In this document: in pieces, positions 10,646 to 37,774 of the stretch
Layout: each line of letters starts with the position of its first letter
Numbering within the stretch: the stretch's first letter is position 1
NCBI GenBank assembly: GCA_965262785.1
Contig: OZ253559.1
Location: 4,066,151-4,130,150 of the forward strand
Direction: 5' to 3'
Length of the DNA stretch: 64,000 nt
Source: Rhodothermales bacterium
GTDB lineage: Bacteria; Bacteroidota; Rhodothermia; Rhodothermales; Bin80
Program-made: the position numbers and the translations under genes
Notes under the pieces: generated by a model
Told to the model about the DNA's origin: nothing
What the model saw: the letters and a program-made list of their open reading frames with translations, nothing else
Database searches by the model: none

Positions 10646-10943
10646 CGCGCGACGCCCTTAAACCGCGCCATTTCGTGCCCTTGAGACCGGTTTTAAGGCG
10701 ATTCTCCGCGCTTTAGCTGAAAACAGGTAACAACCCCGGCGTACGCAGGAGCCGCACAGGGCCCATAGCGGCCGTCCCAAGCCACTGTCACTGGCTCGGG
10801 CTATATGCTGCCGCATTCGCCTCGAGCTCCACCCGGCTGGCGACTACGTGAGATACTTCGCGACGGCGCCCCGGCCGGCCAGCTGGTTGCGTGCATACAG
10901 CGCCGGCATGGCAGCGGAAAGACAACCCCAGATATCTGCCCGC

Positions 10944-11468: not shown

Positions 11469-11477
11469 GTCTGGCTG

Positions 11478-11756
11478 CTACAGGCCCAGCACATCGCCAC
11501 ATTCACCGGCCGACGCTGGCGACGCACTGTCTGCCACCACCCCGCAACCACGCTTGAATGCGACGGCTACCTGAAACTGGGCCTCGACGTGGCCCTGCAG
11601 TGCGGCCTTCATGTACAGGGTGGCCGCCCGCTCGGCGTCGCGCTCCAGGCCTTGGGCACCCTTCCGGTGTAATGCGGCCAGCTGGCACTGGGCCTCGGAG
11701 GCGCCGTCGCGGGCCTGCGCCTGCAGCTGCGCGGTGTCATGCTGTGACGTATCCAT
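11478..11756 (-). pseudogene. Sel1-repeat protein, internally deleted, copy 1
   Basis: AQCQLAALHRKG..LYMKAALQGHVEAQFQVA; lacks the repeats present in the copy at 37050-37612. Confidence 0.75.
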
Positions 11757-14570: not shown

Positions 14571-15497
14571 TTACACGTTTACGCTAGGTGTCCTCTGCAG
14601 GGAGGCGTCAATCCAATCCCAGAGCCGCCTTTCGAGTCGATCATCTAATGTTCCCGAACATAGTGCCGAGATACGGCAACGGTCGAGCAAGATCTGGTCG
14701 ATTCCGACGTCCTTGGCATCCTTTTCCGATAAGGCCCGTGGGACGAAGAATGCCGGGATCGGGTCCATGGCGAGAGGTGCAGCGAAGTTCCTCTTGCACC
14801 AGCGTTTCGGCTGCAATTCGTATGCCTTGCCCTCCCAATGCCGACCGACTGTACACTGGCCAAATAGTATCAGCTTCGAAGCTTTCCGATCGGGGAACTC
14901 CCTCCACGCCACGACATCAAGACCATCGTCCTTTAACTGTTCAATCCCCTCCCGGTCCTTGCATGCCTTCCCCTCACGCAAGAGATCCACTAGGTGGGCG
15001 ACAGCGGCACGAAAGCCCGTCGGGAGGTCGCGGCGCGGCGATCCGAATACTACGGATGTCTTGCTGTCACCGAGGTACCGACCAGCCGCTGCCGCACTCA
15101 ACTCCTCAAACATCTTGGAGACCGTGGTTCCATCGGGATGTTTGTTACTGCTGCCAAGAGATGCGAGAAGTTGGAACAGGTACGCAGGGGAAGGTCTTCT
15201 ACGAAGCTTAAGTCCCTGCCGGGTGATCTCGAATGGGTATGCACTACCCGGCCCGCAAGCTTGGTCCCGATGAGTCAGGACTTCCCTCCACTGTTCCAGA
15301 ATTGTCTCAAAGGGCTCGATGTATGACTGTCCCTCCTCGGGTTCGCCGTACGTCACGACCGCTTCATCCTCGGAGACGGTGAGTCGTAGGTCACGGATCA
15401 CGTCGGTCCATGCAAGGAAGCCCGTGGAGCCTTCCATGCAGGCCTTCTCTAGGCAGTCGGCGTTATCTTCGACCGCCAGGCTCGCGTTCACGGTCAA
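14571..15497 (-). CDS. Hypothetical protein, putative PD-(D/E)XK/Mrr-like nuclease fold
   Basis: FEE..KDDGLDVVAW..FGQC motif pattern; overlaps upstream ParB-like gene. Confidence 0.55.
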   Translation of the reverse strand: MTVNASLAVEDNADCLEKACMEGSTGFLAWTDVIRDLRLTVSEDEAVVTYGEPEEGQSYIEPFETILEQWREVLTHRDQACGPGSAYPFEITRQGLKLRRRPSPAYLFQLLASLGSSNKHPDGTTVSKMFEELSAAAAGRYLGDSKTSVVFGSPRRDLPTGFRAAVAHLVDLLREGKACKDREGIEQLKDDGLDVVAWREFPDRKASKLILFGQCTVGRHWEGKAYELQPKRWCKRNFAAPLAMDPIPAFFVPRALSEKDAKDVGIDQILLDRCRISALCSGTLDDRLERRLWDWIDASLQRTPSVNV

Positions 15498-16552
15498 GGC
15501 TCATCGGGTGTCATGAGAGACTTGAGAGACTTCGCTTGTTGATAGAGGCTATTCCCTCTTGCCACCAGGTCGTTCTCGCCCTTGAATCCAGTTGATATAA
15601 ACTGCATGGCTTCTCTTGCGCTGTTATCGGCTCTTGTGAGCGCGGTACGAAACAGGTAAGTGTCGCCTAGTGAAGCGTCCAGCGCCGCCACAAGCGAGCT
15701 TCCGGACTCCAGCAAGTCTATGCCCTCCCGAGTCTCAAGAGCGCGTGCAAGGTGCCGGAGGTCCGGGTTCTGGCGACGAACCTTTGCCTCGATATTTTGA
15801 GACTGGTTCCCGAAAAGCCAATCCATGAGACTCTGCAATTGTGGCAGTCGGTCGTTTGGAACAGGGTTTTCGTTATCAAGCGTTTCGGCATCAACTCCCA
15901 AGTAGTCCCGGATGGACACATAGCCCAACGCGGTCCATAGATGGGAAAACGGGAATCGTGGGTGCCGGGTGTTAGACGTATCAAAAGAGAACAGGTCCTG
16001 CGCCTGCCGAAGGACGACGTATCCTCGGTACAGGCGAGTCACGGTGTCGTGACGGTCTCCGATCCCTGATGCGATCTCAGCGAGACTCAAGCCGAAGTTC
16101 TTTCGTACGTCGAACACGTACTCAGCCTTGGCGATAGAATCCCAAGCCTGCGGTCCGTTGACATGTTTGAACCCGACGAAACTCCACAGCTCCTTTCGCG
16201 ATGCGAGGATCACCGGTAGTTCTCGTATTGAATCGAGAACATCCTGTGGCGGCTTGGTTAGCTGGATTTCGAGCTGCTCCCGAAGGCCAGAATCCGAGAT
16301 GATCTTTACGGCCGCGAGACGTCGGTTGCCCTCGACTACGACCAACTTGCCCTCCTCCTTGGTCGCGAAGAACTCCTCATGCTCCCAGTAACAATTTGCG
16401 AGGATGGAGTCCACTAATTCGTTCACTGACTTGTTGTGCCAGAGCCAGCGCAGGATAGCTTGCTGGTCCTTCAAAGAGAACTCATCGGACCCGATCCGTG
16501 GGTTATGGGGGTCGAGGTACAGGTCGGACGGGGGGAAATGATGGATGTCCAA
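15494..16552 (-). CDS. ParB/sulfiredoxin-like N-terminal domain protein
   Basis: LYLDPHNPR..LVDSILAN..VVVEGNRRLAAVK. Confidence 0.75.
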   Translation of the reverse strand: MDIHHFPPSDLYLDPHNPRIGSDEFSLKDQQAILRWLWHNKSVNELVDSILANCYWEHEEFFATKEEGKLVVVEGNRRLAAVKIISDSGLREQLEIQLTKPPQDVLDSIRELPVILASRKELWSFVGFKHVNGPQAWDSIAKAEYVFDVRKNFGLSLAEIASGIGDRHDTVTRLYRGYVVLRQAQDLFSFDTSNTRHPRFPFSHLWTALGYVSIRDYLGVDAETLDNENPVPNDRLPQLQSLMDWLFGNQSQNIEAKVRRQNPDLRHLARALETREGIDLLESGSSLVAALDASLGDTYLFRTALTRADNSAREAMQFISTGFKGENDLVARGNSLYQQAKSLKSLMTPDEP

Positions 16553-16631
16553 GGCAGCTGCCGGGATTTTTAGGGTTGTGGTGTGAGCATCAGGAACTGC
16601 TGGCCGTACCGCTCTGTGATGTCGCAGTAAC

Positions 16632-17507
16632 TCATGTGAATAGTCTGTCGCGCGTAATGAGCAGTTCGGGCATCTTGAGGTGGTGGCGGCTTTTCATTTC
16701 CACGAGGGCGGCGTGGAATTCGTGGTGGCGGACCAGCGCGATGATCTCGGAAGAGCAATCGTAGGTCATCAGGAAGTTAGCCTGGCTCTCGGCCAGAGCA
16801 GCAAAAATACGCGCGTGATCCACGGTGCTGTGAGTGTAGAGTCGGGTGCCCGCCTGCTTACCGCCCTCCGCCGTGTACGGCGGATCCACAAAGAAGGCTG
16901 TACCTGGCCGGTCGCACAGTAACTCCAGCAAGCGCACGCCATCGCTTTCGCAGAGCAGCAGCTTATCGGAATGCTCAGCGATGTTCTTCACCCTGTCCAC
17001 CAGTGTGTCTGGATACCACCGGGAGCCAATACCAGCGCCATTTTCGCCGCTCCTGATGAGTGAGGCATCAGGTGCCAAAACACCTCCGTGTCGGGTGCGA
17101 TTCAGGACCAGCGTGCGAAATCCGTGATCGAGAACACTTTGAGGTGCCCCATGGGCTATGCGCTCGACATCATCCCGGCTGGGAGTAAAGGATTGAATGC
17201 GCTCGATCAGCTCCTCTGAGTGCTCCAGCACCGCTCGCCAGAAGGAGGATAGGTCTCGGTCCAACTCCACCATTAGGGCCTGCTTCGCCAGTTCCTCCAT
17301 GACAGCAGTCAATGCTACGACCCCGCCACCAGCAAACGGTTCGATGAGTATGTCGACAGGATCCGCCAACCATTTTCGGATATGGGGCACGAGCCATGTT
17401 TTCCCGCCGGGGTACCGGAGTGGACTGCGCTGTGGCACGCTGGCTACGTTGGCTGCCGGGATAGTCGACGTCCCGAACTCCTGGAGAACCGCAAGCCCGA
17501 AATTCAT
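16632..17507 (-). CDS. Dam/D12-class N6-adenine DNA methyltransferase
   Basis: SPLRYPGGK, EPFAGGG, FFVDPPY, LMTYD motifs. Confidence 0.9.
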   Translation of the reverse strand: MNFGLAVLQEFGTSTIPAANVASVPQRSPLRYPGGKTWLVPHIRKWLADPVDILIEPFAGGGVVALTAVMEELAKQALMVELDRDLSSFWRAVLEHSEELIERIQSFTPSRDDVERIAHGAPQSVLDHGFRTLVLNRTRHGGVLAPDASLIRSGENGAGIGSRWYPDTLVDRVKNIAEHSDKLLLCESDGVRLLELLCDRPGTAFFVDPPYTAEGGKQAGTRLYTHSTVDHARIFAALAESQANFLMTYDCSSEIIALVRHHEFHAALVEMKSRHHLKMPELLITRDRLFT

Positions 17508-17769: not shown

Positions 17770-17865
17770 GCTCCTCACCGGCGGCGGTGCTGTGGGGAAG
17801 GTGCCTGTTGCTGGACTGAGGGACAGAGAAACGAACACGATCCGAACGCGTGTGGTGCCGGACGA
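17770..17865 (+). pseudogene. IS1595-family transposase fragment
   Basis: GGGAVGKVPVAGLRDRETNTIRTRVVPD resembles the IS1595 DDE core. Confidence 0.6.
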
Positions 17866-17885
17866 GCCTCCGCGCAACAGACGAC

Positions 17886-18929
17886 TCACGTCCCTAGTAT
17901 GGCCAGCAATATAGTGCTCAGCATGGACTCGCCGCCCGCCGCATCCACGAAGTTACCACCCCCAGCCCGCGCAACGTCCCTTAGGAAGCGAAGGGCTGCA
18001 TCTCTCGCGATCGGATCGTACGGGAAATTCGCCCGCACGGCAGATACGAAGTGTCCCTGCTGCGCTCCGAAGCTTCTGGCCGCTGCGATCGCTGTCGTAA
18101 TCCTTTCCGGATATGCAGCGTTATCCGTGATTACAATCACGTAGCGCTTCTCACTGACTGCGCGCCAAGGCATGGACATGGCTTCATTCATGGCGGTCGC
18201 GACTGCCTCTGGCTGATCAAGATTCAGCGACCAGTTGGGATCCATGTTTGCACGCAGCGAATTGATGAATGCCGTGATCCTGCTCAGGCGCGTGGTTTCG
18301 ACTATGGCCAAGCGGTGAATAGGCTGCCTCCACCGCCGATCGCCAAACGCCACGATACCGATTCCAACCGAGGGTGCCACTCTGTCCAGCACCCGGGCCA
18401 GCGAAGCTATCTCCCGCTTGAGACCCTCAACCTGGTTCGTCATGCTACCGGTCACGTCAAGGCAAATCACTACGTCCAGTGGTGGCAGCTTCAACTCGCG
18501 GCTTGCCGCTGCCAGACCCGATGCTCGTGTTTGCGCCTCTGCCAGAACCTCCCGCATCGCAGCCAACTGCTGTTCCAACTCCAATTCTCGAGACGCGTCC
18601 TGCCCCTGCGCCAATGCCCGTTCGAGCCTGCTAATCTGCACGCTCGCATCCTCCAACTGCTGTTGCGCTTCCGAGAGCGCCGCTGCCACGGCAGCCTGTA
18701 TATCGCTTTCCTGCTGCATCCTGCCCATCAGGCCCTCCAAGGCCCGGGTACGAGTCTGGGCAACCTCCAGTTCGTCTTTCAGATCTTCTACTCGTACTTC
18801 AGAATCACCGGTATTGGGAAAAAATGGAATGGTAATGATGGCCAGCAGCACGAACGCTCCCATCCCGGACGCAAACAGGTCAAGCGCAGAGATGGAGAAC
18901 ACGTTGAGTTCGCGACGCAGGGGCTTCAT
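17886..18929 (-). CDS. vWA-domain protein with N-terminal ExbD/MotB-like TM helix and coiled coil
   Basis: NVFSISALDLFASGMGAFVLLAII TM with acidic residue; coiled coil; MIDAS DVTGSM and VITD. Confidence 0.85.
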   Translation of the reverse strand: MKPLRRELNVFSISALDLFASGMGAFVLLAIITIPFFPNTGDSEVRVEDLKDELEVAQTRTRALEGLMGRMQQESDIQAAVAAALSEAQQQLEDASVQISRLERALAQGQDASRELELEQQLAAMREVLAEAQTRASGLAAASRELKLPPLDVVICLDVTGSMTNQVEGLKREIASLARVLDRVAPSVGIGIVAFGDRRWRQPIHRLAIVETTRLSRITAFINSLRANMDPNWSLNLDQPEAVATAMNEAMSMPWRAVSEKRYVIVITDNAAYPERITTAIAAARSFGAQQGHFVSAVRANFPYDPIARDAALRFLRDVARAGGGNFVDAAGGESMLSTILLAILGT

Positions 18930-20365
18930 GGCTTGAGCATTTGCACGTCGAGAGTCACATCCCCTAGCCCAATCGTGGCTCCGCTGGCTACTTGCCGTGC
19001 TTGGCCAGCAGAAAGTCGCTCACCGTTGATACTGGTGCCATTGAGACTCCCAAGATCCTCGATCGTGAGGCTTTTCCCGGAGGCGCGCACACGTGCATGC
19101 CGCCTTGATACGCTCGCTTCACTGATAACGTAGTCCGCCTGCGAAGACGATCGCCCAATGATTGCACCGGCTTCGCTCTGCGCCAAGGCATATCCATTCA
19201 CCTTGACATGAAACTCATCCCCAGCCGACCCGCTGCCCGAAAGCACTATGTCTGGAAACGAAGCGGACTTCCGCTCGATTTCGTCTTCCGCTTCCTTCAG
19301 CTTCGCACCAGTTTCGCTAAGCTCATCCCATGCCTGCTTGCGGCGCCTCCACAACCACCATGTCAGCAGGGCCGCCAACATGATCAGGGCAACGCCTGCG
19401 CCCGTCAGCGCGCGCAGTTGCCGTTGTGCGCGTTGCTGATCTGCCTCAGCTTGCTGCTCAAGTGAGTCACTCGCCGCACGAAGCTGCTCAAAATCAGACT
19501 GGAGCCTATCCTTCTCCGCGATAATGGAATCTTGCTCGGCCAACTCGTTAGCGGTCTCCACAAGGCGCCTTTCAAGCGAAGCTTTCTGTGCAGTCACCGC
19601 GGCGATCGTTTCGGCACTCCGCTGCTGATCCTGCTCTGCAGACTCTTCCAGTTGCTTGAGTTCCTCCTCAAGTGATTGCCTTTCCTCTTCAAGCGCTGTA
19701 CTGGCAACCTTAGCTTGCTCCAACTGCTCCTGAACGGATGGGCACACTTCGTCTTCGGTCATAAAGTCTACCTGGCTCTCTTCCAGGAACGCCACAAGAT
19801 TCTGGCGAGACCAGCCACGCACCATGTTGTCCTCGGCTTCCTCATCTCTAATTCCCAGCTCACCGGCTACCATGGCAACAAGGTGTCCGCAGTGGTTCAT
19901 CAGAGGCGCCCCGACCTCATGTAGCCCAACGGTCATCGTCAAGTGGTACCGCGAGGCCGTGCTGTCCGAGGATTCAATCGACAGCAGCAACCCTCGTCGA
20001 CGCGTCCCGTCAGCAACCAGAAGGTGCACGCTGCTGTCAGAATCCGGGGATCCTGCCGCAATGGATGCCGAGGTACCAGTCAGGCCAGGCACCGAAAGAA
20101 GTGCGAGCCCCCCGGAGCGCGCATGAATCGTCGCCGCATAGCGAGCGCCGCTTGCGAAATCCTGGACCAGGACCTGGTCTCCGCTGTCAACCAGATCAGC
20201 GTCTGTCAGAAGAAGATGCTCGGCTACAAGGACTCCGTAGCCCTGCGCGACAACCACCCCTTCGGCCTGGACCACTATTCTGAAGACCGTGGATTCCGCC
20301 CGATGCGCTATCATTCCCGCTGCCATTACAGCGACAAGTACGATCCTGAGGCTACGTGTTGTCAT
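18926..20365 (-). CDS. Membrane protein: signal - degenerate trypsin-like domain - coiled coil - TM - cytoplasmic FHA
   Basis: GYGVLV..LLTDADLV, GAPLMNHCGHLV (trypsin fold, triad lost); IIGRSS..SVSRRHA..DLGSLNGT (FHA); ORF track start 20422, likely start 20365. Confidence 0.8.
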   Translation of the reverse strand: MTTRSLRIVLVAVMAAGMIAHRAESTVFRIVVQAEGVVVAQGYGVLVAEHLLLTDADLVDSGDQVLVQDFASGARYAATIHARSGGLALLSVPGLTGTSASIAAGSPDSDSSVHLLVADGTRRRGLLLSIESSDSTASRYHLTMTVGLHEVGAPLMNHCGHLVAMVAGELGIRDEEAEDNMVRGWSRQNLVAFLEESQVDFMTEDEVCPSVQEQLEQAKVASTALEEERQSLEEELKQLEESAEQDQQRSAETIAAVTAQKASLERRLVETANELAEQDSIIAEKDRLQSDFEQLRAASDSLEQQAEADQQRAQRQLRALTGAGVALIMLAALLTWWLWRRRKQAWDELSETGAKLKEAEDEIERKSASFPDIVLSGSGSAGDEFHVKVNGYALAQSEAGAIIGRSSSQADYVISEASVSRRHARVRASGKSLTIEDLGSLNGTSINGERLSAGQARQVASGATIGLGDVTLDVQMLKP

Positions 20366-20373
20366 GGCCTTCC

Positions 20374-21120
20374 TTATCTCGGTCGGTAAACAACCAGGGT
20401 TGCGTTGTCCTGTCCAGGCCACTCGTGCTCCGCGACGGCATCCAGAATCGCACCGACAATGTCCGCAGCGGAGGGCTTGCCTGCCGTTACAATATCACAA
20501 AGCTCTGCGCCGGTGCAGGTCTCGACGCCGTCGCTAGCGGCTATGACAGTATCTCCAGGAAGCAGGTCAAGCGCCTCCAGAGGTGCATCCACGTATTGCA
20601 TGTCCTCACCCTGGACCGCTTCAAACAGAACCCCTCTCTGGCGAGAACTCGCCGCTTCTTCGGCAGTGATTTCCCCGGCCTTAGCTCTCATGTCAAGCAG
20701 CCCGCCAATGGAATGGTTCTCATTCAATCGGTCGATAGCTCCGTTTCTGATCAGCCAGAGGGGACTATCTCCCACGCTTACCCAAGCCAGCTTGGCCTTT
20801 GCTACTGCAGCTCCTACCAAGGTAGTGCCCATGGAAGCAAGTGCTGGTACGTTCCGTTTTTTATCGCAGACAGCATCGTTGGCATCCTCCAGCGCCGCCA
20901 GCAGCCGACTACGAACCGCGGCGGCTGGATTCTTCATGAACGACTCGACAAATCCGGCAGCCGCAGTCTCACTCGCGACATCTCCCCCGGCAGCACCACC
21001 GATTCCGTCTGCCAACACAAGAAGATACTTGCCCTTCTTCCATTCCACCCAATTCGCAGCGTCCTGCTGCGATTCTCGGTCACCTTTGATCGTACCCCAT
21101 GCTACTGCGGCCTGCCTCAC
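20374..21120 (-). CDS. PP2C-family Ser/Thr phosphatase
   Basis: RESQQDA, LADGIGG, MGTT, VGDS, ASDG, QDNAT motifs. Confidence 0.93.
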   Translation of the reverse strand: MRQAAVAWGTIKGDRESQQDAANWVEWKKGKYLLVLADGIGGAAGGDVASETAAAGFVESFMKNPAAAVRSRLLAALEDANDAVCDKKRNVPALASMGTTLVGAAVAKAKLAWVSVGDSPLWLIRNGAIDRLNENHSIGGLLDMRAKAGEITAEEAASSRQRGVLFEAVQGEDMQYVDAPLEALDLLPGDTVIAASDGVETCTGAELCDIVTAGKPSAADIVGAILDAVAEHEWPGQDNATLVVYRPR

Positions 21121-21782
21121 TGGGACAAAACTCCTTTATTCCAAGTGAAGTCTTCGTCGCAGAACGCGACGAACCGCAGCGTGGTCTCGCCAAGCGTAAT
21201 CACGCTGCCAGACCTTAACGCTGTAGGAGACAGGACCGGCTCTCCACCCAGGTAAGTCAGGTTGGTCCCCGCACCCTGCTGAATGTGAAACCGATTATTT
21301 CTGGGGTCATACGTCACAATGGCATGCGATTCTCGCGAAATATGTCGGTCACCGAAATCAACCCGTGCCCGGGCCTTGCCCCCCCTTCCCACGGAGTTCT
21401 GCCCGCTTCCCAGTCTTACAGCCGACCCGCGGCCGGGCCCGCCTACAACGACAAGCCACCCCACGACTGGATCCGCCATGGGATCTGAGGCCGGAAGTGG
21501 GTCCCCGGGTTCGCTGGCAGACCGCTTTCGTCCCACGGCGACAACCGTGCGGGGCTCACCGCCCGCAGGTGCAAAGGCATCCAAGTCTGCATGCGGGCGA
21601 ACGGCTGGCCTGGTGGGCAACTCCCCACGCCCTATGACACTGCGACCGCGCGGGTGCTGGTCCTGTTCAGATGTGTCTTCCTTCGGACCGGACTCAAGGC
21701 CACGAAACAGGCCCTTGGCCTTCGGCGGTACCGCCGAAGGCACATCCGTCAGTAGTCCGTCTTTGTTGAGCTTCTTCGCCAT
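21117..21782 (-). CDS. FHA-domain protein with disordered N-terminus
   Basis: VVGWLVVVGGPGRG..NSVGR..GDRHISRESHA..GTNLTY. Confidence 0.88.
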   Translation of the reverse strand: MAKKLNKDGLLTDVPSAVPPKAKGLFRGLESGPKEDTSEQDQHPRGRSVIGRGELPTRPAVRPHADLDAFAPAGGEPRTVVAVGRKRSASEPGDPLPASDPMADPVVGWLVVVGGPGRGSAVRLGSGQNSVGRGGKARARVDFGDRHISRESHAIVTYDPRNNRFHIQQGAGTNLTYLGGEPVLSPTALRSGSVITLGETTLRFVAFCDEDFTWNKGVLSQ

Positions 21783-21793
21783 TGCCTCCGCTC

Positions 21794-22675
21794 CTATTCT
21801 TCGTAGAGCCGATTGATGAGGTTGTCCATGCAGTACTGGCCCGCGCTGTTGAGGGCAGCCTCCTCCTTACCCTGGGCAATGTGCTGCAGAAACACCAGCA
21901 CTGCGGCCATCACGAGCGCCATGAACGTGGTGTTGAATGCAAGCCCCAGTTTGGCGGTTATCGCCCCAAACCAAGCCTGCACAGCTTGCGCATCGTCTAG
22001 GCTCGGCATGTCGTTAGCCGCCGTGAGGGCCAGCGCGATACCGATGACCGTCCCAATGAAGCCCAGCGTGGGTATGAGCCAAGTAATATAGCGTACCATG
22101 CTGTACTTGAGGTCAATCTCGTGCTGCATGAGCTCAAGGCTGGAGTCCACCAGGCTATTCGCCTGGGCCACAGACCTGCTGATCTGGAACTGCTGAATCG
22201 CGCGCAGGATTAGTCGCTGAAGCCGAAAGTGCGTGGAACGCTTGGCCTTCATGACCTTGCGGTAGATACCAATCAGATCCTTCGATCGAAGGATGGTGCC
22301 ATGATCGTCTGGCAACAGCCCGATGCCAAATTGCCTGAATTCCGCGCGTGCGCGTGTGAACCGAGGCCACAATTCAGCCAGACCAATGAAGAACGTCAGC
22401 CACATCACATTCTGGATCGTCAGCGGGTAGAGGGCGCTTCCCCGATCCAAGAGTAGGGCGGAAAGAATGATGCGATCACTCGCTACTTCCGGTACCGGGA
22501 GCAGAGCGGTGAGGATCGCTATCACTCCAGAGCCAGCCAGCAGCGCCGAAAGGGCGCCGACAACGCGGCCGGTGGACTCGTGCAGTTCAAGCACGTTCAC
22601 GAATTCAGCCTTGCGATTGGTGAATGGTAGCGCCGTTGCGGGACTCTGGTTCCAACTATTGGGCCAGCGCCACAA
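21794..22675 (-). CDS. MotA/TolQ/ExbB proton-channel family protein
   Basis: IPTLGFIGTVIGI and LGLAFNTTFMAL TM signatures; start may be ~22600. Confidence 0.9.
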   Translation of the reverse strand: MWRWPNSWNQSPATALPFTNRKAEFVNVLELHESTGRVVGALSALLAGSGVIAILTALLPVPEVASDRIILSALLLDRGSALYPLTIQNVMWLTFFIGLAELWPRFTRARAEFRQFGIGLLPDDHGTILRSKDLIGIYRKVMKAKRSTHFRLQRLILRAIQQFQISRSVAQANSLVDSSLELMQHEIDLKYSMVRYITWLIPTLGFIGTVIGIALALTAANDMPSLDDAQAVQAWFGAITAKLGLAFNTTFMALVMAAVLVFLQHIAQGKEEAALNSAGQYCMDNLINRLYEE

Positions 22676-22810
22676 ATGAACCTGAGGTCTTCATGAGCAA
22701 TATGCGCCGGACTGCAGAGCCCCTCCCGAGTTATGCCGGTGTAATCCTTCGTGTTGGACAAGCGCCTCTCGCAGAGTCATACAAGCGCAAAGTAGCCAAG
22801 TACATTTGGC

Positions 22811-25807
22811 CTACCCACCGGCGTAGCCTTGCTCTCTGGCTAGCCGATACCAGCGGCGCGCTTCCACATAGTCCCGGTCCACGCCGAATCCGTTGTCGTA
22901 CATATATCCCAGGTTGTACTGCGCCCTCGCATCGCCTTGTTTTGCGGCCAGCCGATACCAGCGAAGCGCTTCCGCATAGTTCTGATCCACTCCCAACATG
23001 TTCAAATACGCATATCCCAAGGCGCTCTGCGCCACGGCATTGCCTTGCTCTGCGGCCAGCCGAAACCAGCGGACCGATTCTCCATAGTCCTGGTCCACGC
23101 CCCAACCATTCGAGTACGCTATTCCCAAGAGGCCCTGCCCGCCGGCATTGCCTTGCTCTGCGGCTAGCCGAAACCAGCGGAGCGCTTCCGCATAGTCCTG
23201 GTCTATGCCGATTCCGATCGCGTACGCATCTCCCAAGCTATTCTGCGCGTCGGCATTGCCTTGCTCTGCAGCCAGCCGGAACCAGCGGGCCGCTTCCGCA
23301 TAATTCCGGCCCACGCCTCGTCCATTCCAGTACGCATCTCCCAAGCTATTCTGCGCGTCGGCGATGCCTTGCTCTGCGGCCAGCCGGTACCAGCGGACCG
23401 CTTCCGAATAGTCCTGGTTCACACCTCTTCCGTACCAGTACGCACTTCCCAGGTTAAACTGTGCATAGGCATCTCCTTGCTCTGCGGCCAGCCGGAACCA
23501 GCGGAGCGATTCCGCATAGTCCTGGTCTATGCCGATTCCGTTCGCGTACGCAAGTCCCAAGCTATTCTGCCCGTTGGCATTGCCTTGCTCTGCGGCCAGC
23601 CGATACCAGCGGAGCGCCTCCGCATAGTCTTGGTCCACGCCGCTTCCATTCCAGTACGCACGTCCCAGGTTATTCTGCCCGTCGGCATTGCCTTGCGCTG
23701 CGGCTAGCCGATACCAGCGGACCGCTTCCGCATAGTCCTGGTTCACGCCCCAACCATTCCCGTACGCACTTCCCAGGTTATTCTGCCCGCCGGCATTGCC
23801 TTGCTCCGCGGCTAGCCGAAACCAGCGGAGCGCTTCCGTATAGTCTTGGTCCGCGCCTTCTCCTTTCGCGTACGCGTATCCCAAGCTATTCTGCCCGTAG
23901 GAATTGCCTTGCTCTGCGGCCAGCCGAAACCAGCGGACCGATTCCGCATAGTCCTGGTCTATGCCGATTCCGTTCGCGTACGCATATCCCAAGCTATTCT
24001 GCGCGTCGGCATCTCCTTGCTCTGCGGCCAGCCGGTACCAGCGGACCGATTCCGCATAGTCCTGGTCTATGCCGATTCCGTTCGCGTACGCATATCCCAA
24101 GCTATTCTGCGCGTCGGCATCTCCTTGCTCTGCGGCCAGCCGGTACCAGCGGACCGATTCCGCATAGTCTTGGTCTACGCCGGTTCCGTTCCAGTACGCA
24201 AGTCCCAAGCCATACTGCGCGCCGGCATTGCCTTGCTCCGCAGCCAGCCGGTACCAGCGGACCGATTCCGCATAGTCTTGGTCTACGCCGGTTCCGTTCC
24301 AGTACACATGTCCCAAGCCATTCTGCCCGCCGGCATTGCCTTGCTCCGCAGCCAGCCGAAACCAGCGGACCGCTTCCGTATAGTCTTGGTCTACACCGTC
24401 ACCGACGTAGTACGCAAGTCCCAAGCCAATCTGCGCGTAGGAATTGCCTTGCTCTGCGGCCAGCCGGTACCAGCGGACCGCTTCCGTATAGTCTTGGTCT
24501 ACACCGTCACCGACGTAGTACGCAACTCCCAAGCTTTTCTGGCCGTCGGCATTGCCTTGCTCTGCGGCCAGCCGAAACCAGCGGACCGCTTCCGTATAAT
24601 TCTGGTTCACGCCTCTTCCGTTCCAGTACGCACTTCCCAGATTTCCCTGCGCCACGGCCTGGCCTTGCTCTGCGCCTAGCCGATACCAGTTGAACACTGC
24701 AAATTCTCGCAGAGTAGTCACAGCCGCAATTGTAACCAACAGTAAGGTCAACGTAACGACGAGGGCACGGTAACGCGACGCTGCAGGTCGGTCTCGTCGT
24801 GCGCGCTTCTTCAGACGAGGTTGGCTAGCTATTACTCGATTCCTCCCTTCCGTTGCATCAGACGGCGATACTGCCGCCAAGTCCCGCTCGCGGACCTTAG
24901 CAAGCAGTTCATCGCAAGAGCGAATTCGTGACGCATCCGAGATCTCCAGACACTGGTCAATGGACTCAAGCAGTCTCGGCAGGAACCTTCCCTGCCCAAC
25001 AACGCTGGCAGACGGCAACGGGTCAGCCCCGCCTTGCATGACCGCGTAAGCCCTCTGCTGAACCTTTGCCAGACTTGGCGGCTCCCATGGAGGATTGCCG
25101 CCCGCCACCATACGCCACATTACTGCCCCTACGCCGTAGATATCTGTCCATGGCCCGATGGCCCCTTCACCGACCTGTTCCATTGCTGCGTAGCCATCGG
25201 TGTACGGCGCCATGGACTTCGTAACGCCCGAGGTCTCTTGCTTGGCCGCACCGAAGTCTATCAGCACCGGCTGATTGTCCTTCCGCCGAATCAGGATGTT
25301 CGAGGGCTTGATGTCTCGGTGGTACAGCCCAGATTCATGGGCTCGCTTCAGGCCACTAAGCAGCGGAAGAATCACCTGGAGCAAGTCCCCCTCCGTAAAC
25401 GGCTCTCCTCTTTTTTCCCGCAGCTCCAGCAACGCAGACAGCGGCAGGCCGTCTACAAAGTCCATCACCATGTACGCCGTGCCGTTCGCCCGAAACAAGT
25501 CGCGGCTGGTAACAATATTCGGATGTTCTCGAAACGCTTCTAATCGTCGGCCCTCTTCCAAAAAGCGCCGGAGACCGTCTTCGAAGGAAGCTTCAATTCC
25601 TGACTCCGCAGGCTGAACGACACCAGATCTGCGCGCCGCCAACTCACGCGGGAAGTACTCCTTAATTGCAACATCCGCCTGAAGCATCCTGTGGCGACCC
25701 TTATACACAACACCGAATCCGCCACGTCCGAGTACGGACTCGACTACGCAGTCACGGAGCACGGTACCACTAGCAAGGAAGTCGCCTTCTGGTGGATGCT
25801 GGATCAT
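22811..25807 (-). CDS. Receptor-type Hanks Ser/Thr kinase, TM helix, 17 Sel1-like repeats
   Basis: LGRGGFGVVY, VAIKE, HRDIKPSN, DFG, YAAME, TDIY; TM ALVVTLTLLLVTIAAV; 36-aa repeats ending RLAAEQG. Confidence 0.93.
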   Translation of the reverse strand: MIQHPPEGDFLASGTVLRDCVVESVLGRGGFGVVYKGRHRMLQADVAIKEYFPRELAARRSGVVQPAESGIEASFEDGLRRFLEEGRRLEAFREHPNIVTSRDLFRANGTAYMVMDFVDGLPLSALLELREKRGEPFTEGDLLQVILPLLSGLKRAHESGLYHRDIKPSNILIRRKDNQPVLIDFGAAKQETSGVTKSMAPYTDGYAAMEQVGEGAIGPWTDIYGVGAVMWRMVAGGNPPWEPPSLAKVQQRAYAVMQGGADPLPSASVVGQGRFLPRLLESIDQCLEISDASRIRSCDELLAKVRERDLAAVSPSDATEGRNRVIASQPRLKKRARRDRPAASRYRALVVTLTLLLVTIAAVTTLREFAVFNWYRLGAEQGQAVAQGNLGSAYWNGRGVNQNYTEAVRWFRLAAEQGNADGQKSLGVAYYVGDGVDQDYTEAVRWYRLAAEQGNSYAQIGLGLAYYVGDGVDQDYTEAVRWFRLAAEQGNAGGQNGLGHVYWNGTGVDQDYAESVRWYRLAAEQGNAGAQYGLGLAYWNGTGVDQDYAESVRWYRLAAEQGDADAQNSLGYAYANGIGIDQDYAESVRWYRLAAEQGDADAQNSLGYAYANGIGIDQDYAESVRWFRLAAEQGNSYGQNSLGYAYAKGEGADQDYTEALRWFRLAAEQGNAGGQNNLGSAYGNGWGVNQDYAEAVRWYRLAAAQGNADGQNNLGRAYWNGSGVDQDYAEALRWYRLAAEQGNANGQNSLGLAYANGIGIDQDYAESLRWFRLAAEQGDAYAQFNLGSAYWYGRGVNQDYSEAVRWYRLAAEQGIADAQNSLGDAYWNGRGVGRNYAEAARWFRLAAEQGNADAQNSLGDAYAIGIGIDQDYAEALRWFRLAAEQGNAGGQGLLGIAYSNGWGVDQDYGESVRWFRLAAEQGNAVAQSALGYAYLNMLGVDQNYAEALRWYRLAAKQGDARAQYNLGYMYDNGFGVDRDYVEARRWYRLAREQGYAGG
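22826..24661 (-). repeat. Coding tandem array of 17 x 108-bp Sel1 repeats
   Basis: Recurrent GCCTTGCTCTGCGGCCAGCCG at 108-bp period. Confidence 0.93.
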
Positions 25808-25985
25808 TGGTCAGGCGGCCATTTCCGCTCTTGCGACATGTGCTCTTCGAAAGTAAGGCAAGCTTCGGCTAAGGACAACGGCAGACCTTTGCGCAGTTGT
25901 GCATACTCCAACCATGCTACTCCTCGAGCTGCACGCTGCGTACGCGTAGCTGCATACGATTGGCCAACGCTTTACGAGGTAATCC

Positions 25986-26101
25986 ATGCCTGCAAGAAAA
26001 ATCTCCATGTGTAAACTCAAAGAAATACTTCGCCTGGCATTCGAGGGCGGGATGGGTGTACGATCCCATAGCCCGCTGCTTGGGATTGTCGCACAGTACG
26101 G
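25986..26101 (+). pseudogene. istA: IS21-family istA N-terminal remnant
   Basis: MPARKISMCKLKEILRL..(frameshift)IARCLGLSHST, cut by repeat copy D. Confidence 0.7.
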
Positions 26102-26225
26102 TAATGAATGTCAATAGTCTTTCCCGGTCTGCGACAATTGTTAGTACAGGAAATGTTTTAAGCCCCGAAAAACGGAAATGAACGACCGGAAGGGCACCCT
26201 GCACGCCGCCTGAGATCACCGCGCA
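26102..26225 (+). repeat. Transposon-end-like repeat copy D followed by repeat M copy 3
   Basis: TAATGAATGTCAATAGTCTTTCCCGGTCTGCGACAATTG then GGAAATGTTTTAAGCCCCG..ATGAACGACCGG. Confidence 0.8.
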
Positions 26226-26897
26226 CAAACAAGGGTGGAACCGCCTCGGAATCGCCGCGGATCGCGCCCGATCGCTCAGGTACGGCCCGGGGCGATTTCG
26301 GAGACCTTTTCCTGATAACCCTGACTATCTGGGGACGCTGAAGCCGTCGGGGCGGGCTTTAGCACCCGTGGGACGCGTGCCCGCGCAGCACCTAGGTCTG
26401 CTCCTGCCAGGTGGAACGCTCTACGCGTTCCAGTATCTAATCGTCATCGTCAGAAGCGTCGCTATCAGCAATAGACGCTGCGGTACGCCTCTCTGGCGGC
26501 TTAACTTTTCGTGCTTCCAGGAATGCGCGCTCGCCATCAATCAGGGTGTCCAACCTCAAGCGGATGAGACCCGAATGATCACCGTCTCGCAATAGCTGGA
26601 CGGAATCTATTGGAAAGCCGTGGCTAGGCCTGCGATCGCCCGCTTCTGAGCGCTGAAAGATTTTTACCGACAAGGGGTTTCAATCCCTTCTACGGCGGAG
26701 CGCGGACGACGTCAGGATGGAGCAAATTGCGGGTTAAGAAAATGACGTGAGTGCTTAAGCTGCAAATTCCACCACGGGCTTGAATTTCTTGATTTCGGCA
26801 GCAGGGGCACGCGGACTGGTGAATGATCCGGACTCGATGTGGACCTTTGGCTTGATATGATGCGTATTGAGCGCCTCATAGCTGAGCCTTAAGGAGG

Positions 26898-27098
26898 ATG
26901 ACTAAGAAAGTGATAACACGGCAGTCCACGAGCGTGCATTCCAACCCCGGAGGAAGTGCCGTTCACGATGATTCGCGAGCACGCATCGTCGTGCGTGCGA
27001 CCGACACAGTGCACGCTGTAAGTCCTACTTCTGAGCGGATCATCAAGGAGACCTCGGTGAAGCGCCGACAAGCCATAAAGGTGCTGGCAAATCGATAG
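26898..27098 (+). CDS. Putative small antitoxin
   Basis: AAGGAGG RBS; 66 aa ending RRQAIKVLANR, like Doc-antitoxin C-termini; directly upstream of Fic/Doc gene. Confidence 0.6.
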   Translation: MTKKVITRQSTSVHSNPGGSAVHDDSRARIVVRATDTVHAVSPTSERIIKETSVKRRQAIKVLANR

Positions 27099-27474
27099 GC
27101 GGCACTATCGCGTTACTTACAACGACGCGATTCGCTGTCATGAGGAAGCTCTTCTGGATGGCGGGGCCCCAGGGATCATAAGCGAGCATGTGATTCGGTC
27201 AGCGCTGGGTCGCCCGTACCATGACTACTACCCAGACATCCATCAGAAGGCAGCCGCCCTGATTCACGCGATCGTTTCAAGTCGCGGATTTGTAGACGGG
27301 AATAAACGAACGGCCCTCTATCTGACGGAACTGTTCGTTCAGAGAAGTGGCTATGAATTGGCCATTGATGACCTGGAATTCGTGGAGGCTCTAACGAGCG
27401 TTGCATGCGGTCAAATGAGTTGTGAGAATCTCGCGGAGTGGATTTGTATACTGCGACGTTATTCGAACAGGTAA
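27091..27474 (+). CDS. Doc/Fic-family toxin (His of Fic motif replaced; start codon unclear)
   Basis: SALGRP..KAAALIHAIVSSRGFVDGNKRT; frame open upstream of GTG 27190 to 27079 with no ATG. Confidence 0.75.
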   Translation: MDRRHYRVTYNDAIRCHEEALLDGGAPGIISEHVIRSALGRPYHDYYPDIHQKAAALIHAIVSSRGFVDGNKRTALYLTELFVQRSGYELAIDDLEFVEALTSVACGQMSCENLAEWICILRRYSNR

Positions 27475-27600
27475 CTCGAAGGAATTCGAACACTGGATTC
27501 TGGCTGTGACTCGTGCCCGAGGCACGTTGGTCTGCACGGTGCTGGAGCTTTGCTTAACCCCGGGGCTATTGGGGTTCTCTGTTAACCAACCGAGAGCCCG

Positions 27601-27855
27601 GTGCCCAGAAAGCGAATCTCCATGCGAAAGATCAAAGACGTACTTCGCCTGCGTTACTGGGAGGAATACAGCCTGCGCGCAACGGCCCGCTGTCTGAGTA
27701 TCTCTGTCAGCACAGTAAGCAACTATATCAACCGCGCAGCCGAGGCCCAGTTGGAGTGGCCGCTGCCGGACGAGTTGACCGATGCAGAGCTGCAAGAGCG
27801 GTTCTTCCCAAAGCCCAAGGAGGCCGCGGCGCGGCCCGTGCCCGACTGGAGCTGG
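27601..27855 (+). pseudogene. istA: IS21-family istA N-terminal fragment
   Basis: MPRKRISMRKIKDVLRL..ARCLSISVSTVSNY..WPLPDELTDAEL..PDW; DDE domain missing. Confidence 0.85.
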
Positions 27856-27984
27856 GCCTCAACCGTAAGGTCCCCGACCGTAACGATCTCGGGATCTGGC
27901 TGGCAACCCACCACCAGAGGCCAAGTGGCTCGTCGCATCGGCGCACATGTCATTGTTTACGAGGGGGCGCGCGACTGGGGCCGG

Positions 27985-28074
27985 GCGGGCAGATACGCGG
28001 GGCTGTCGGTGCTCCATCCTTTCCCCAGATAATACTAATTGTCAGAGGAAAGACAACCCCGCGTATCTGCCCGC
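27985..28074. repeat. 23-bp inverted repeat with 44-bp spacer
   Basis: GCGGGCAGATACGCGGGGCTGTC (27985-28007) / GACAACCCCGCGTATCTGCCCGC (28052-28074), one mismatch. Confidence 0.75.
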
Positions 28075-28599
28075 TCACGGGCCGCGCGCTGGGAGCGCTC
28101 CTCGGCGGCGGGCCGCCTCCCTGTTGTAGCAGTCCTTACAGCGGGAGTGCAGTCCATTGAACCGGGTCCGGTCCTTGTAGAAAGCGGTGTGCGGCAGGCA
28201 ATCACGGCATAGGGAGCATGTGTACGTGCCAGGGCGAACAGGTTTATTCCGCCTGCGCCCTGCCCTGGAGCGGCGTCTGGATGTGTTGGACGGCGTGAAT
28301 GGCAAGGTGCGTGCCCCTGGAGCCAGGCGCGTCAGGCGATTGAGCGGGTCGGCCTCTGCATGGATGAAGGCCAGCTCGCGGGCGTAGGCCTTCCCTGCAG
28401 GTACGTCCGCGGCCAGGATAGTAAGCTCGTAGGGCTGGCCAGCACTGAGCTGCCTGTAAAGCTCCATGTTGACGGCGGCGTGCAGCTGGCCGTGCTGACG
28501 GATGCGCACGGCGACCTCCTTAGAGGTAACGCCCACGTAGGCGCGCCCATCCGCAAAGCCGATGCGGTAAATAGTACACGAGAGCTCAGAAGTGTCCAT
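28075..28599 (-). CDS. GIY-YIG/zinc-finger endonuclease, copy 2
   Basis: Same length as and near-identical to 10944-11468. Confidence 0.75.
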   Translation of the reverse strand: MDTSELSCTIYRIGFADGRAYVGVTSKEVAVRIRQHGQLHAAVNMELYRQLSAGQPYELTILAADVPAGKAYARELAFIHAEADPLNRLTRLAPGARTLPFTPSNTSRRRSRAGRRRNKPVRPGTYTCSLCRDCLPHTAFYKDRTRFNGLHSRCKDCYNREAARRRGALPARGP

Positions 28600-28608
28600 G
28601 TCTGGCTG

Positions 28609-28897
28609 CTACAGGCCCAGCACATCGCCACACTCACCGGCCGACGGCGGCGGCCTTCCTTTCCCTGGACACCTGCATCTCCGTCAGTGCCTGCAGCTGC
28701 GCCGTGTCATGCTGTGACGTATCCATGGCGGTCTATGGGTGGTGAATCACTATCCCATAATAAGCCCGCAGGGATGCGAGATGCTGGAGCTGGATGCATT
28801 GGGTGGGGATTATGACAGAACGCGGCTGTTAACCTTTCTATATAATTCCCGCCTATACCCTGCGGCTTGCGCCGCATAATAGCGGGCAACAGCGCCC
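28609..28897 (-). pseudogene. Collapsed module remnant: Sel1 gene with all repeats deleted, structured spacer, last codons of a recombinase
   Basis: MDTSQHDTAQLQA joined to LTEMQV..; spacer matches 11757-11884; GAVARYYAAQAA recombinase tail. Confidence 0.75.
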
Positions 28898-29536: not shown

Positions 29537-30502
29537 ATGGCGACACTACCCGCTGCCAATACGCTGCCCGAGGCGCTGGGTGGCCGCCAGGCCGCCCTCA
29601 TCAGCGCCTCGCTCTCGGCCAACACCCGGCGGGCTTACCGACACGCGTGGGATGCCTGGCTGGTATGGCTGGGCCAGGAGGAGGCCTCGGACGTCACCGC
29701 GAGCGCCTACCTCGCTGCGATGCATGACGCGGGCAAGGCGCCCGCCACCTGCGCTCTGCACGCAGCGGCCTTGCGCTTCGCTCACCGAGTGGGGGTCCGG
29801 GGCGCGCCCGTACCTGGGCCGCTCGTGGAACGGACACTGGCGGGTATCCGCAGGGAGGGCCGCGCCCGCGGCCGCGGGCAGGTCGAGGGTATCACGTGGA
29901 GTCAGGCCGATGCCACCGCGCAGGTGGCGGCGCAGGCCGGTCTCTCCGGACTCCGTGACGCGGCCCTGGTGGCCACCATGTCGGACGCACTGCTGAGGGC
30001 CTCTGAAGCCAGTGCCCTCACCGTGGCCGATATTCAGCGCCAGGCGGACGGCTCCGGGCTACTCGTCCTCGCGCACTCAAAGACGGATCAGGAAGGCCGG
30101 GGCAGCACGCTCTATCTCGGGCCGCCCACCATGGAGCGCATCACGGCCTACCTGCAGGCTGCGGGGGTGTCGGAGGGGGTGCTTTTTCGACGCATGCGGC
30201 GCGGGGAGACGATCACGCCGTCCCCGCTCTCACCCACCAGTATCCGGAGCATCGTCCGCGGCCGCGCTGCCGGCGCCGGACTCCAGGGCCGGCACAGCGC
30301 CCACAGCCTCCGGGTGGGGAGCGCCCAGTCACTCATAGAGCGCGGAGCCACGCTGCCGGAGGCGCAGCTGGCAGGGCGCTGGCAATCCCCATCCATGGTG
30401 GCACACTACGCCGCCGGGCAGCTGGCAGGACGCGGCGCGGTGGCCAAGCTCAGGTACGCTACACAAGCAGGCGATCCTGTCCCGCACGATCAGGCCACAT
30501 AG
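29537..30502 (+). CDS. Cre-like tyrosine recombinase B
   Basis: SANTRRAY..W; RDAAL..LLRASE, HSKTDQEG, HSLRVG, GRW, HY. Confidence 0.9.
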   Translation: MATLPAANTLPEALGGRQAALISASLSANTRRAYRHAWDAWLVWLGQEEASDVTASAYLAAMHDAGKAPATCALHAAALRFAHRVGVRGAPVPGPLVERTLAGIRREGRARGRGQVEGITWSQADATAQVAAQAGLSGLRDAALVATMSDALLRASEASALTVADIQRQADGSGLLVLAHSKTDQEGRGSTLYLGPPTMERITAYLQAAGVSEGVLFRRMRRGETITPSPLSPTSIRSIVRGRAAGAGLQGRHSAHSLRVGSAQSLIERGATLPEAQLAGRWQSPSMVAHYAAGQLAGRGAVAKLRYATQAGDPVPHDQAT

Positions 30503-37612: not shown

Positions 37613-37774
37613 GGCTCTGTATGGGGTGGTGAATCACTACCCCATGATAAGCCTGCGCGGATGCGAGATGCTGTCGGGGGGCTGCCCTGCGACCCACCGC
37701 GGCCGGGTCGGTCGGGCAATCGCTGCTGCCTGTGCCGTACTTTACCGGCCACCACCAGGCCCGTACACCACGCC

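Follow-up and report, generated by a model that had tools for sequence, protein, structure and literature searches.

A TolQ/ExbB-like channel, an Asp-helix vWA protein and a Ser/Thr phospho-signalling set in one gene cluster of a Rhodothermales bacterium: a candidate proton-driven envelope motor

What could a channel protein of the MotA/ExbB family be doing in a tight gene cluster with a receptor kinase, a PP2C phosphatase, two FHA proteins and a membrane-anchored vWA protein? The question is raised by a locus of a Rhodothermales bacterium, found in a stretch of 64,000 nucleotides (contig OZ253559.1 of assembly GCA_965262785.1, positions 4,066,151 to 4,130,150; hereafter the window), for which an earlier note, made from the sequence alone, had suggested a self-contained envelope sensor or motor with a stator-like complex. 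The reading that we regard as probable, with a good deal of reserve, is that the kinase and the five packed genes would encode an inner-membrane, proton-driven motor unit of the TolQ/ExbB type under phosphothreonine control. We infer the motor part from sequence, fold and synteny, and the phosphothreonine circuit from domain logic.

All six open reading frames (ORFs) of the cluster were confirmed, co-oriented on the minus strand, at 17886-25807. The genes, and the helix on which much of the argument turns, are:

22811..25807, minus strand: receptor Ser/Thr kinase, 998 aa (Pfam Pkinase E 4e-35; Sel1 E 1.4e-165 in 17 stretches)
21794..22600 (longest ORF to 22675), minus strand: most likely a TolQ/ExbB-like proton-channel subunit (MotA_ExbB E 5.5e-10)
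21117..21782, minus strand: soluble FHA protein, FHA1, 221 aa (Pfam FHA E 2.2e-8)
20374..21120, minus strand: PP2C Ser/Thr phosphatase (Pfam PP2C_2 E 2.3e-13)
18926..20365 (longest ORF to 20422, 498 aa), minus strand: bitopic FHA protein, FHA2 (FHA E 2.5e-17; Trypsin_2 E 1.9e-4)
17886..18929, minus strand: transpore-helix (TPH) vWA protein, 347 aa (Pfam VWA_2 E 2.2e-8)
18834..18899, minus strand: putative transpore-type helix FSISALDLFASGMGAFVLLAII of the vWA protein, with Asp17 encoded by GAC at 18879-18881

The channel gene probably starts later than its longest ORF, at GTG 22600 (268 aa), because the homologues have 268-275 aa and cover 91% of that ORF; the FHA2 gene probably starts at ATG 20365, which is preceded by AAGGAAGG and opens a signal-peptide-like N-terminus. 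The kinase stop lies ~210 nt upstream of the likely channel start, the channel stop is separated from the FHA1 start by 11 nt, and the pairs FHA1/PP2C and FHA2/vWA each overlap by 4 nt; the last five genes all overlap or lie at most 11 nt apart. The earlier note had described six co-oriented genes, the last five overlapping or nearly abutting, and had assigned domains to all six products; the ORF coordinates and the Pfam results agree with it on both points. As it had also stated, no flagellar, TonB, type VI secretion system (T6SS) or Zorya effector genes were seen among the flanking ORFs scanned.

Analysis of the channel protein with Pfam placed it in the MotA_ExbB family (PF01618) with 39.5 bits against a cut-off of 22.9, and the same domain was carried by all 120 channel homologues listed. 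The protein consists of two N-terminal transmembrane helices, a cytoplasmic helical domain and two pore-type helices, which hold the motifs PTLGFIGTV (T209) and AFNTT (T249 and T250). Alignment of 25 sequences revealed that T209, T249 and T250 were invariant, and among the homologues listed AF.TT was present in 120/120 and PxxGFxGT in 112/120. Both motifs resemble those of the canonical ExbB of the same genome, MFGFLGTVIGM and ALLTTVFGL. The AlphaFold 2 model of the channel reached a pLDDT of 89.6, and TolQ chains occupied the first ten places among its Foldseek matches (TMt up to 0.71, probability 1.00), followed by ZorA and then ExbB. Sequence and model together indicate that the channel subunit is most likely a TolQ/ExbB-like proton channel.

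A channel of this kind requires us to ask where its pore partner is encoded. Genome-wide searches returned four MotA_ExbB matches and three ExbD matches; the three ExbD genes adjoin two canonical ExbB/MotA genes far from the cluster, and a profile search of the whole genome revealed no ExbD near the cluster or near its partial duplicate (described below). This leaves the helix of the vWA protein as the only candidate for a pore partner.

The vWA protein, whose N-terminus reads MKPLRRELNVFSISALDLFASGMGAFVLLAII, is made up of a short basic N-terminus, the helix, a helical stalk of ~100 aa and a C-terminal vWA domain; in the AlphaFold 2 model these correspond to a helix at 12-32, helices at 43-146 and an alpha/beta domain at 151-346. 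The transmembrane helix with an Asp in the motif SALDLF, to which the earlier note had drawn attention, was recovered, the acidic residue being Asp17. Alignment of 25 diverse homologues showed that S14-A15-L16-D17-L18-F19-A20-S21 was invariant, and the Asp motif was present in 117 of the best 120 homologues from a whole-protein search that was not seeded on the motif, the remaining 3 being without the whole N-terminus. At the comparable place after a basic N-terminus the ExbD proteins of the same genome read ...SSMADIAFLLLIFF and ...ASLPDIIFMLLIFF. The vWA protein has a single N-in transmembrane helix whose conserved Asp lies close to the cytoplasmic side, as is typical of ExbD/MotB-type partners, joined to a C-terminal domain with a vWA fold and not to the periplasmic domain of ExbD/TolR or an OmpA-like one. 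The best Foldseek match of the vWA model was BatB (3ibs, 7.9e-10), with CMG2 and integrin I-type domains also close. The domain carries a DxTxS...D motif of the metal-ion-dependent adhesion site (MIDAS) type, and DxS/TxS was found in 119/120 homologues. The distribution of charges around the helix, with MKPLRRE ahead of it, and the analogy with ExbD suggest that the vWA domain is located in the periplasm.

A pair of this kind has been proposed before. Transmembrane-tethered vWA proteins encoded together with tolQ homologues, without tolR/exbD and with an Asp-bearing transpore helix, were predicted in 2025 as a second family of such tethered proteins (Mol Biol Evol, PMC12204202); that article also presents AlphaFold 3 models of 5:2 tolQ-like/TPH-vWA complexes with an Asp pair inside a Thr ring. 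The window shares with these motors, as described there, a vWA gene beside a tolQ-like gene, the absence of tolR/exbD, the Asp helix and the conserved channel Thr. The gene pair that defines them is present in the window, and the search for ExbD covered this genome. The vWA genes in the accessible text of PMC12204202 occur in heterologous pairs, whereas the window and its genome have a single TPH-vWA gene; pairs of vWA genes occur in relatives of the locus (e.g. L070 and L075-L080). The hosts named in that text are Proteobacteria and Verrucomicrobia, those found here Rhodothermales, Acidobacteriota, Gemmatimonadota and others. In the main text of PMC12204202, 'kinase', 'phosphatase' and 'PP2C' never occur, and 'FHA' is found only inside 'FhaC'. 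The statement of the earlier note that no characterised system of this kind was known must therefore be narrowed, since the core, a channel with an Asp-helix vWA protein, had already been predicted in silico in the accessible part of that article. No paper joining such a channel with a phospho-circuit was found in the full-text literature searched, outside which most subscription journals lie. The coupling to phospho-signalling and to proteases thus seems to be the new part, the core pair being known as a prediction. PMC11341870 had come up in the literature as a possible case of MotA with FHA and PP2C and was rejected, as its MotA is a phage T4 protein.

The other four genes would encode the components of a phospho-circuit. 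The kinase has an N-terminal Hanks kinase domain, one transmembrane helix at ~aa 345-365 and 17 Sel1 repeats, which are predicted to be periplasmic; its catalytic motifs GRGGFG, VAIK, HRDIKPSN and DFG, read from the translation, are intact. The PP2C protein likewise keeps, in its translation, the metal-binding and catalytic motifs LADGIGG, ASDGV and DNATLVV. FHA1 has a disordered N-terminal tail of ~100 aa followed by a C-terminal FHA domain, a layout that we take to be similar to that of GarA. Alignment of 20 FHA1 sequences revealed that the G/R/S/H/N residues of the FHA domain were conserved and that Thr79 in the tail (21546-21548) was kept in at least 90%.

Many related loci (see below) contain two to five kinases. 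We scanned the window kinase and, for each of 58 loci, a single kinase of 450 aa or more, chosen out of 102 such ORFs in total. The kinase domain was found in 58/59, and the outer domains varied: Sel1 in 17, FGE-sulfatase in 14, PEGA in 11, TPR in 6, beta-helix in 5, peptidoglycan-binding in 4, ankyrin in 3 and LRR in 3.

FHA2 is predicted to consist of a signal peptide, a periplasmic trypsin-fold domain, a coiled coil of ~115 aa, a transmembrane helix followed by the basic stretch WRRRK, and a cytoplasmic FHA domain. Its Trypsin_2 match has 22.6 bits, below the cut-off of 27.6, and the single pseudo-protease sequence gave no protease match when compared with the PDB; the family profile matched HtrA1 at 2e-5 and DegS at 4.5e-4. 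Comparison with hhalign of FHA2 and the motif-bearing protease-transmembrane-FHA proteins of related loci gave a probability of 100 (E 1.4e-46) and homology over the whole length. The residues of the catalytic triad are replaced in FHA2 (His by Asp76, Asp by Gly, Ser by Val), and in the 23 aligned members of its clade neither a His nor a Ser is conserved there. This comparison of profiles, made against active relatives, bears out the designation 'dead trypsin' used in the earlier note. Two Cys, C178 and C227, are invariant, which would fit a periplasmic disulfide. The basic residues, the signal peptide of FHA2 and these two Cys suggest that the protease domain faces the periplasm and that the FHA, PP2C and kinase domains are cytoplasmic.

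The fold of the FHA2 periplasmic domain is the same as that of the S1 proteases HtrA and DegS, and relatives keep TNxHV...GNSGGP; FHA2 differs from HtrA/DegS in its replaced triad, in the lack of a PDZ domain detectable with Pfam and in its C-terminal transmembrane helix and cytoplasmic FHA domain. Among 83 FHA2-type ORFs of related loci, 12 keep TNxHV...GNSGGP and 20 carry HExxH, and Pfam revealed strong Trypsin_2 (1.8e-27) or thermolysin (M4) domains in the protease-FHA proteins of relatives. About 20 loci add an M4 protease-transmembrane-FHA protein (e.g. L035 980-5078, L021 12720-16842 and L044 2619-5705); these M4/S1 proteins are often accompanied by a second PP2C fused to a thermolysin-propeptide motif, and in L044 both are fused into one protein of 1028 aa. 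Protease-transmembrane-FHA proteins are, on the evidence of their sequences, a general theme of the related loci, with catalytic motifs kept in distant relatives. A complex prediction for the pseudo-protease (residues 40-232) and the vWA part (146-347) gave a score of 0.00 against a mark of 0.32, which speaks neither for nor against binding.

From these elements a mechanism can be proposed. A TolQ-like pentamer would enclose two Asp-helix vWA subunits, the Asp helix being the pore-inserted partner in place of ExbD, TolR or MotB and carrying the vWA domain on a periplasmic stalk of ~100 residues. The receptor Hanks kinase, which has a variable, putatively periplasmic sensor (17 Sel1 repeats here), would phosphorylate a Thr, for which Thr79 of FHA1 is the best candidate and the kinase itself another. 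Two FHA domains would read the mark, namely soluble FHA1 and the cytoplasmic end of bitopic FHA2, whose coiled coil would have about the same length as the vWA stalk, and PP2C would reset the state. Phosphorylation may in this way gate the assembly or activity of the motor and set the periplasmic (pseudo)protease beside the vWA arm. Such a motor may serve envelope surveillance, defence, adhesion or host interaction.

Does the cluster hold together in other genomes? One genome per species was scanned; 240 relatives of the vWA protein were found and 78 loci were kept, in which genes were counted by tblastn with the window proteins, several loci ending at contig ends. Greedy clustering of the ORFs of the loci, which undercounts genes as opposite-strand shadow ORFs arise in GC-rich DNA, was used only to find extra recurrent families. 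The 78 loci span at least five phyla, their hosts belonging to Rhodothermales, Bryobacterales, Terriglobia, Vicinamibacterales, Longimicrobiales, Binatia, Alphaproteobacteria and Gammaproteobacteria, the last with SAR86, Alteromonas, Microbulbifer, Halioxenophilus, Corallincola and a Pseudomonas sp. A channel gene was counted in 60 loci, any FHA gene in 74, a kinase gene in 71, an FHA1-type gene in 55 and a PP2C gene in 55, and all five kinds together in 47.

The commonest order was channel-FHA1-PP2C-FHA2-vWA with kinases on either side, and this order of the five genes recurs in Rhodothermales, Acidobacteriota, Gammaproteobacteria, Alphaproteobacteria and Gemmatimonadota. An alphaproteobacterial form has the order kinase...channel-vWA-small FHA-vWA2, with the Asp helix on both vWA proteins. 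Twenty loci, the window not among them, have a gene for a small FHA protein of ~90-180 aa with a C-terminal ...RRNxxTGE[VI]E directly upstream of the channel gene (L010 5685-6233, L021 5811-6161, L035 5262-5543 and 17 other loci). Synteny, for which the earlier note had proposed a neighbourhood search, is thus kept across phyla.

A bolder picture, which we consider quite unlikely, is that the cluster is a periplasmic capture-and-processing machine powered by the proton motive force under receptor-kinase control. Since ATP is absent from the periplasm, power would come from a TolQ-like rotary unit, which would pull or twist a ligand held by the MIDAS site of the vWA domain and present it to S1/M4 proteases tethered at the same height. 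The proteases keep their catalytic motifs in many relatives and would be fossilised as a scaffold in the clade of the window. The varied kinases (Sel1, FGE-sulfatase, PEGA, LRR, ankyrin, beta-helix, peptidoglycan-binding) would be the pattern receptors by which the machine is licensed, via binding of phosphothreonine by FHA. Were this true, the cluster would serve envelope surveillance or host interaction and would provide the first example of gating of a 5:2 motor by Hanks-type phosphorylation.

Several points weigh against a proton-driven motor under phosphothreonine control as proposed above. On the side of the motor, every Foldseek E-value of the channel was above 1e-3, the profile of the channel family matched in the PDB only a 28-residue stretch of MotA (E 0.76), and the N-terminus of the vWA protein has no match to Pfam ExbD (PF02472), only vWA families being found at E <= 0.01. 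On the side of the circuit, alignments revealed no conserved cytoplasmic Thr in the channel or in the vWA N-terminus, which leaves the phospho-acceptor conjectural, and no result constrains which way the signal runs. The 78 loci were found by peptide patterns of the vWA N-terminus, may over-represent one subfamily and, being seeded in this way, are no measure of Asp conservation. The window itself is without common parts of its relatives, namely the small upstream FHA protein, the M4 protease-FHA protein and the second vWA protein. Finally, 18/78 loci have no channel gene in the DNA examined; some, e.g. L032 and L062, are contig-end cases, and others, e.g. L025, L055, L063 and L066, span the full 20 kb.

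The channel-less loci also lend some weight to the view that there is no motor at all. The N-terminal helix would then be a plain anchor, the vWA, FHA, kinase and PP2C proteins would form a phospho-switch comparable to ArnA-ArnB, the Deinococcus operon DRA0331-0334 or the TerY-P triads, and the MotA-like protein would be a passive scaffold or conduct something else. Phospho-modules of vWA and FHA proteins are represented by ArnA/ArnB of Sulfolobales and the TerY-P triads, and the vWA proteins of such modules, that of DRA0331-0334 of Deinococcus included, are cytoplasmic. A plain anchor would not be expected to keep eight consecutive invariant residues, a charged Asp among them, across phyla; the Thr motifs of the pore-type helices are kept, no ExbD accompanies the channel, and in the alphaproteobacterial form its gene abuts the vWA gene. 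Moreover, the vWA domain is predicted outside the cytoplasm, beyond the reach of the kinase, unlike ArnB and TerY. Operons with vWA, kinase, FHA and PP2C genes and no channel do exist (bioRxiv 10.64898/2026.01.23.701218; PMC7159879, which in its accessible part describes other systems). Like the window, the Deinococcus operon DRA0331-0334 brings together vWA, Ser/Thr kinase, FHA and PP2C genes, according to the available part of the first of these sources. This co-location is found in the window and recurs in its relatives; the modules of the DRA0331-0334, ArnAB and TerY-P kind differ in having no channel gene, and the window vWA is predicted to be periplasmic with a pore helix. On balance we hold the absence of a motor to be improbable.

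Returning to the motor reading, we compared the cluster with the established 5:2 motors TolQR-TolA, ExbBD-TonB, MotAB/PomAB and ZorAB. The channel fold, the Pfam family and the single N-in Asp helix are alike. The partner encoded in the window differs from theirs in consisting of a coiled coil and a vWA domain instead of a TolR/ExbD domain or an OmpA-like peptidoglycan-binding domain, and the cluster lacks a third subunit like TolA or TonB, a ZorA tail and ZorC/D. Some likeness is also seen to the Agl-Glt machinery of Myxococcus, which combines a motor of the TolQR type with an FHA domain adjoining a transmembrane helix and with the vWA protein CglB as adhesive output; the FHA domain of GltG, next to such a helix, is predicted there on the cytoplasmic face of a TolQ-like AglR pentamer (PMC11761067). 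Agl-Glt differs, by the same text, in comprising at least 17 proteins, in its plugs AglQ/AglS and in having its vWA on an outer-membrane lipoprotein (PMC11761067). No Glt homologues were found among the recurrent families of the related loci.

In T6SS, a membrane Hanks kinase (PpkA), a PP2C (PppA) and an FHA protein (Fha1) control an envelope machine. The likeness of this triad to the window genes raises the further alternative that the cluster is an accessory regulator of a T6SS phosphorylation pathway, or of a flagellar stator, TonB or Tol, encoded elsewhere. The window differs from the T6SS pathway in having two FHA proteins, up to four in relatives, and the regulated machine would be TolQ-like. 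TssC (PF05943), the only T6SS family searched, had no match in the single-contig genome, which is 97.1% complete, and assignment to a T6SS accessory locus was rejected for this reason. The canonical ExbB/ExbD sets lie far away, none of the genes of these machines is among the recurrent families of the 78 loci, and the cluster moves as a cassette, all of which makes an accessory role extremely unlikely. The earlier note had named loss of synteny, loss of the Asp and a match to a T6SS locus as the findings that would overturn its stator-like reading of the vWA helix; none of them was observed, and that reading survives.

We also asked whether the surroundings of the cluster point to a function. 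The closest relative shares only 17865-22599 (90% identity) and its flanks differ; elsewhere flank conservation is mixed, flanks being shared between species in L030/L033/L035 and in L070/L075. Such comparisons depend on the divergence of the species pairs and give a weak inference. The cluster lies between two integrase/GIY-YIG pairs, beside PD-Lambda-5-like genes. The island location proposed in the earlier note was corroborated by these neighbours and by flanks not common to the closest relative. These data mark the cluster as an accessory, mobile cassette, compatible with a role in defence or host interaction. Part of the cluster is duplicated in the same genome:

21371..28844: duplicated segment, 94-99% identical to a second copy (blastn; L083 2719-10273)

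The second copy, of ~7.5 kb, is located at ~1.937-1.944 Mb (G000:C1). The segment spans the channel and kinase genes, part of FHA1, a GIY-YIG gene and 2.2 kb of mobile DNA in decay. In the second copy FHA1 is truncated at ~residue 128, where a DDE transposase gene adjoins it, and the kinase has 1034 aa compared with 998 aa in the window.

Three copies of the GIY-YIG gene, ~96% identical, were found, at 10909-11515 and 28040-28646 of the window and at L083 2911-3520. The two window copies are near the tyrosine-recombinase genes 11885-12859 and 29537-30502 and bracket the cluster; the GIY-YIG/recombinase pairs may represent a repeated mobile unit. Between the kinase and the GIY-YIG gene, ~2.2 kb (25808-28075) contain no long ORF. 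Within this region, a 94-aa ORF (27190-27474, plus strand) has, by eye, what we take to be a Doc/Fic-like ...DGNKRTA motif, and a 143-aa ORF (27601-28032, plus strand) presumably resembles the helix-turn-helix end of an IS21-type transposase. The PD-Lambda-5-like pair follows immediately after the vWA gene, at 15494-17507 on the minus strand, and consists of an A-like protein (E 2.1e-16) and an adenine methyltransferase of the D12 class (PD-Lambda-5_B, E 1.4e-42).

Further away, the plus strand carries at 4627-10207 an NYN gene (PADLOC HEC-09, E 2.9e-12), a calcineurin-like phosphoesterase gene and a gene for a 1177-aa AAA_27/SMC-like ATPase, the latter two being SbcCD-like. At 31244-35118 (minus strand), a MORC-like HATPase_c_3 gene is overlapped by a PNP_UDP_1 gene that matches PADLOC PDC-M60C (E 3.1e-19); this pair may be another defence candidate. 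A stand-alone Sel1 protein with 4 repeats is encoded at 37050-37871 (minus strand), and a DNA relative with 78% identity occurs beside the partial duplicate (L083 11967-12415). An Rfam match to group II intron D1-D4-6 was found at 38420-38643 (minus strand; 161 bits, E 1.3e-46). Finally, a 1.4-kb element with a 423-aa ORF at 48673-50078, 88% identical to DNA at another position in the closest relative (L005 15038-16445), is probably an insertion sequence.

This context bears on an alternative in which the flow of information is reversed, and which we judge unlikely: the cluster would act against phages or invaders as a Zorya-type sensor, in which the channel/vWA unit detects a periplasmic ligand or a disturbance of the envelope and the kinase, FHA and PP2C proteins relay or amplify the signal to cytoplasmic targets or to the tethered proteases. 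The PD-Lambda-5-like neighbours, the integrases of the region, the PNP-type effector-like gene and the NYN/HEC-09 matches would agree with such a role; as evidence, island neighbours are circumstantial. Flanks differing from those of the closest relative would fit as well, and flanks conserved between species in some lineages would not. The distribution is patchy, the channel subfamily (E <= 1e-30) being present in 2/401 sampled genomes of the phylum, one of them that of the window, yet the loci extend over several phyla; some genomes have several copies (L025, L026 and L042 belong to one record), and the outer domains of the kinases are very varied.

Kinase/phosphatase modules can serve defence, an example in the available part of PMC11341870 being KKP. 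The PADLOC check that the earlier note had proposed was run, and it returned no system-level match for the six proteins. The kinase domain matched the models mad6 and PD-T4-6; beyond such generic kinase models the matches were marginal, with ZorA, LmuB (over the coiled coil) and Ppl, and FHA1 gave nothing. The Zorya match was to ZorA2 only, at E 5.2e-4 and 17 bits over the shared channel core, and no ZorB, ZorC or ZorD was found in the six proteins and ten neighbours scanned. The cluster has no nuclease, NTPase or other recognised cytoplasmic effector, which also speaks against a sensor of this type.

The finding that a TolQ-like channel and an Asp-helix vWA protein are encoded together with a phospho-circuit is real, conserved and mechanistically suggestive; its striking core idea is already published as a prediction, and the regulatory and proteolytic layers appear to be new. 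Four functional classes of ion-driven 5:2 motor have been studied experimentally, namely flagellar stators, the Ton and Tol systems and gliding, with Zorya added recently. A fifth class, to date known from prediction alone, would have an adhesion-type vWA domain on the rotor helix itself. The loci described here embed such predicted motors in a conserved phosphothreonine circuit of a Hanks kinase, PP2C and two to four FHA proteins, together with tethered periplasmic proteases, and they offer testable handles in Asp17, Thr209, Thr79, the kinase Lys and the MIDAS site. Genetics should be feasible, because the related records include cultured Alteromonas, Microbulbifer, Halioxenophilus, Corallincola and Pseudomonas sp. 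The variety of sensors, the patchy spread across phyla and the island context make the system a candidate for defence or for interaction between symbiont and host. If the proposed motor reading is true, this would be the first proton-driven envelope motor switched by eukaryote-like Ser/Thr signalling, and it would join two fields that rarely meet.

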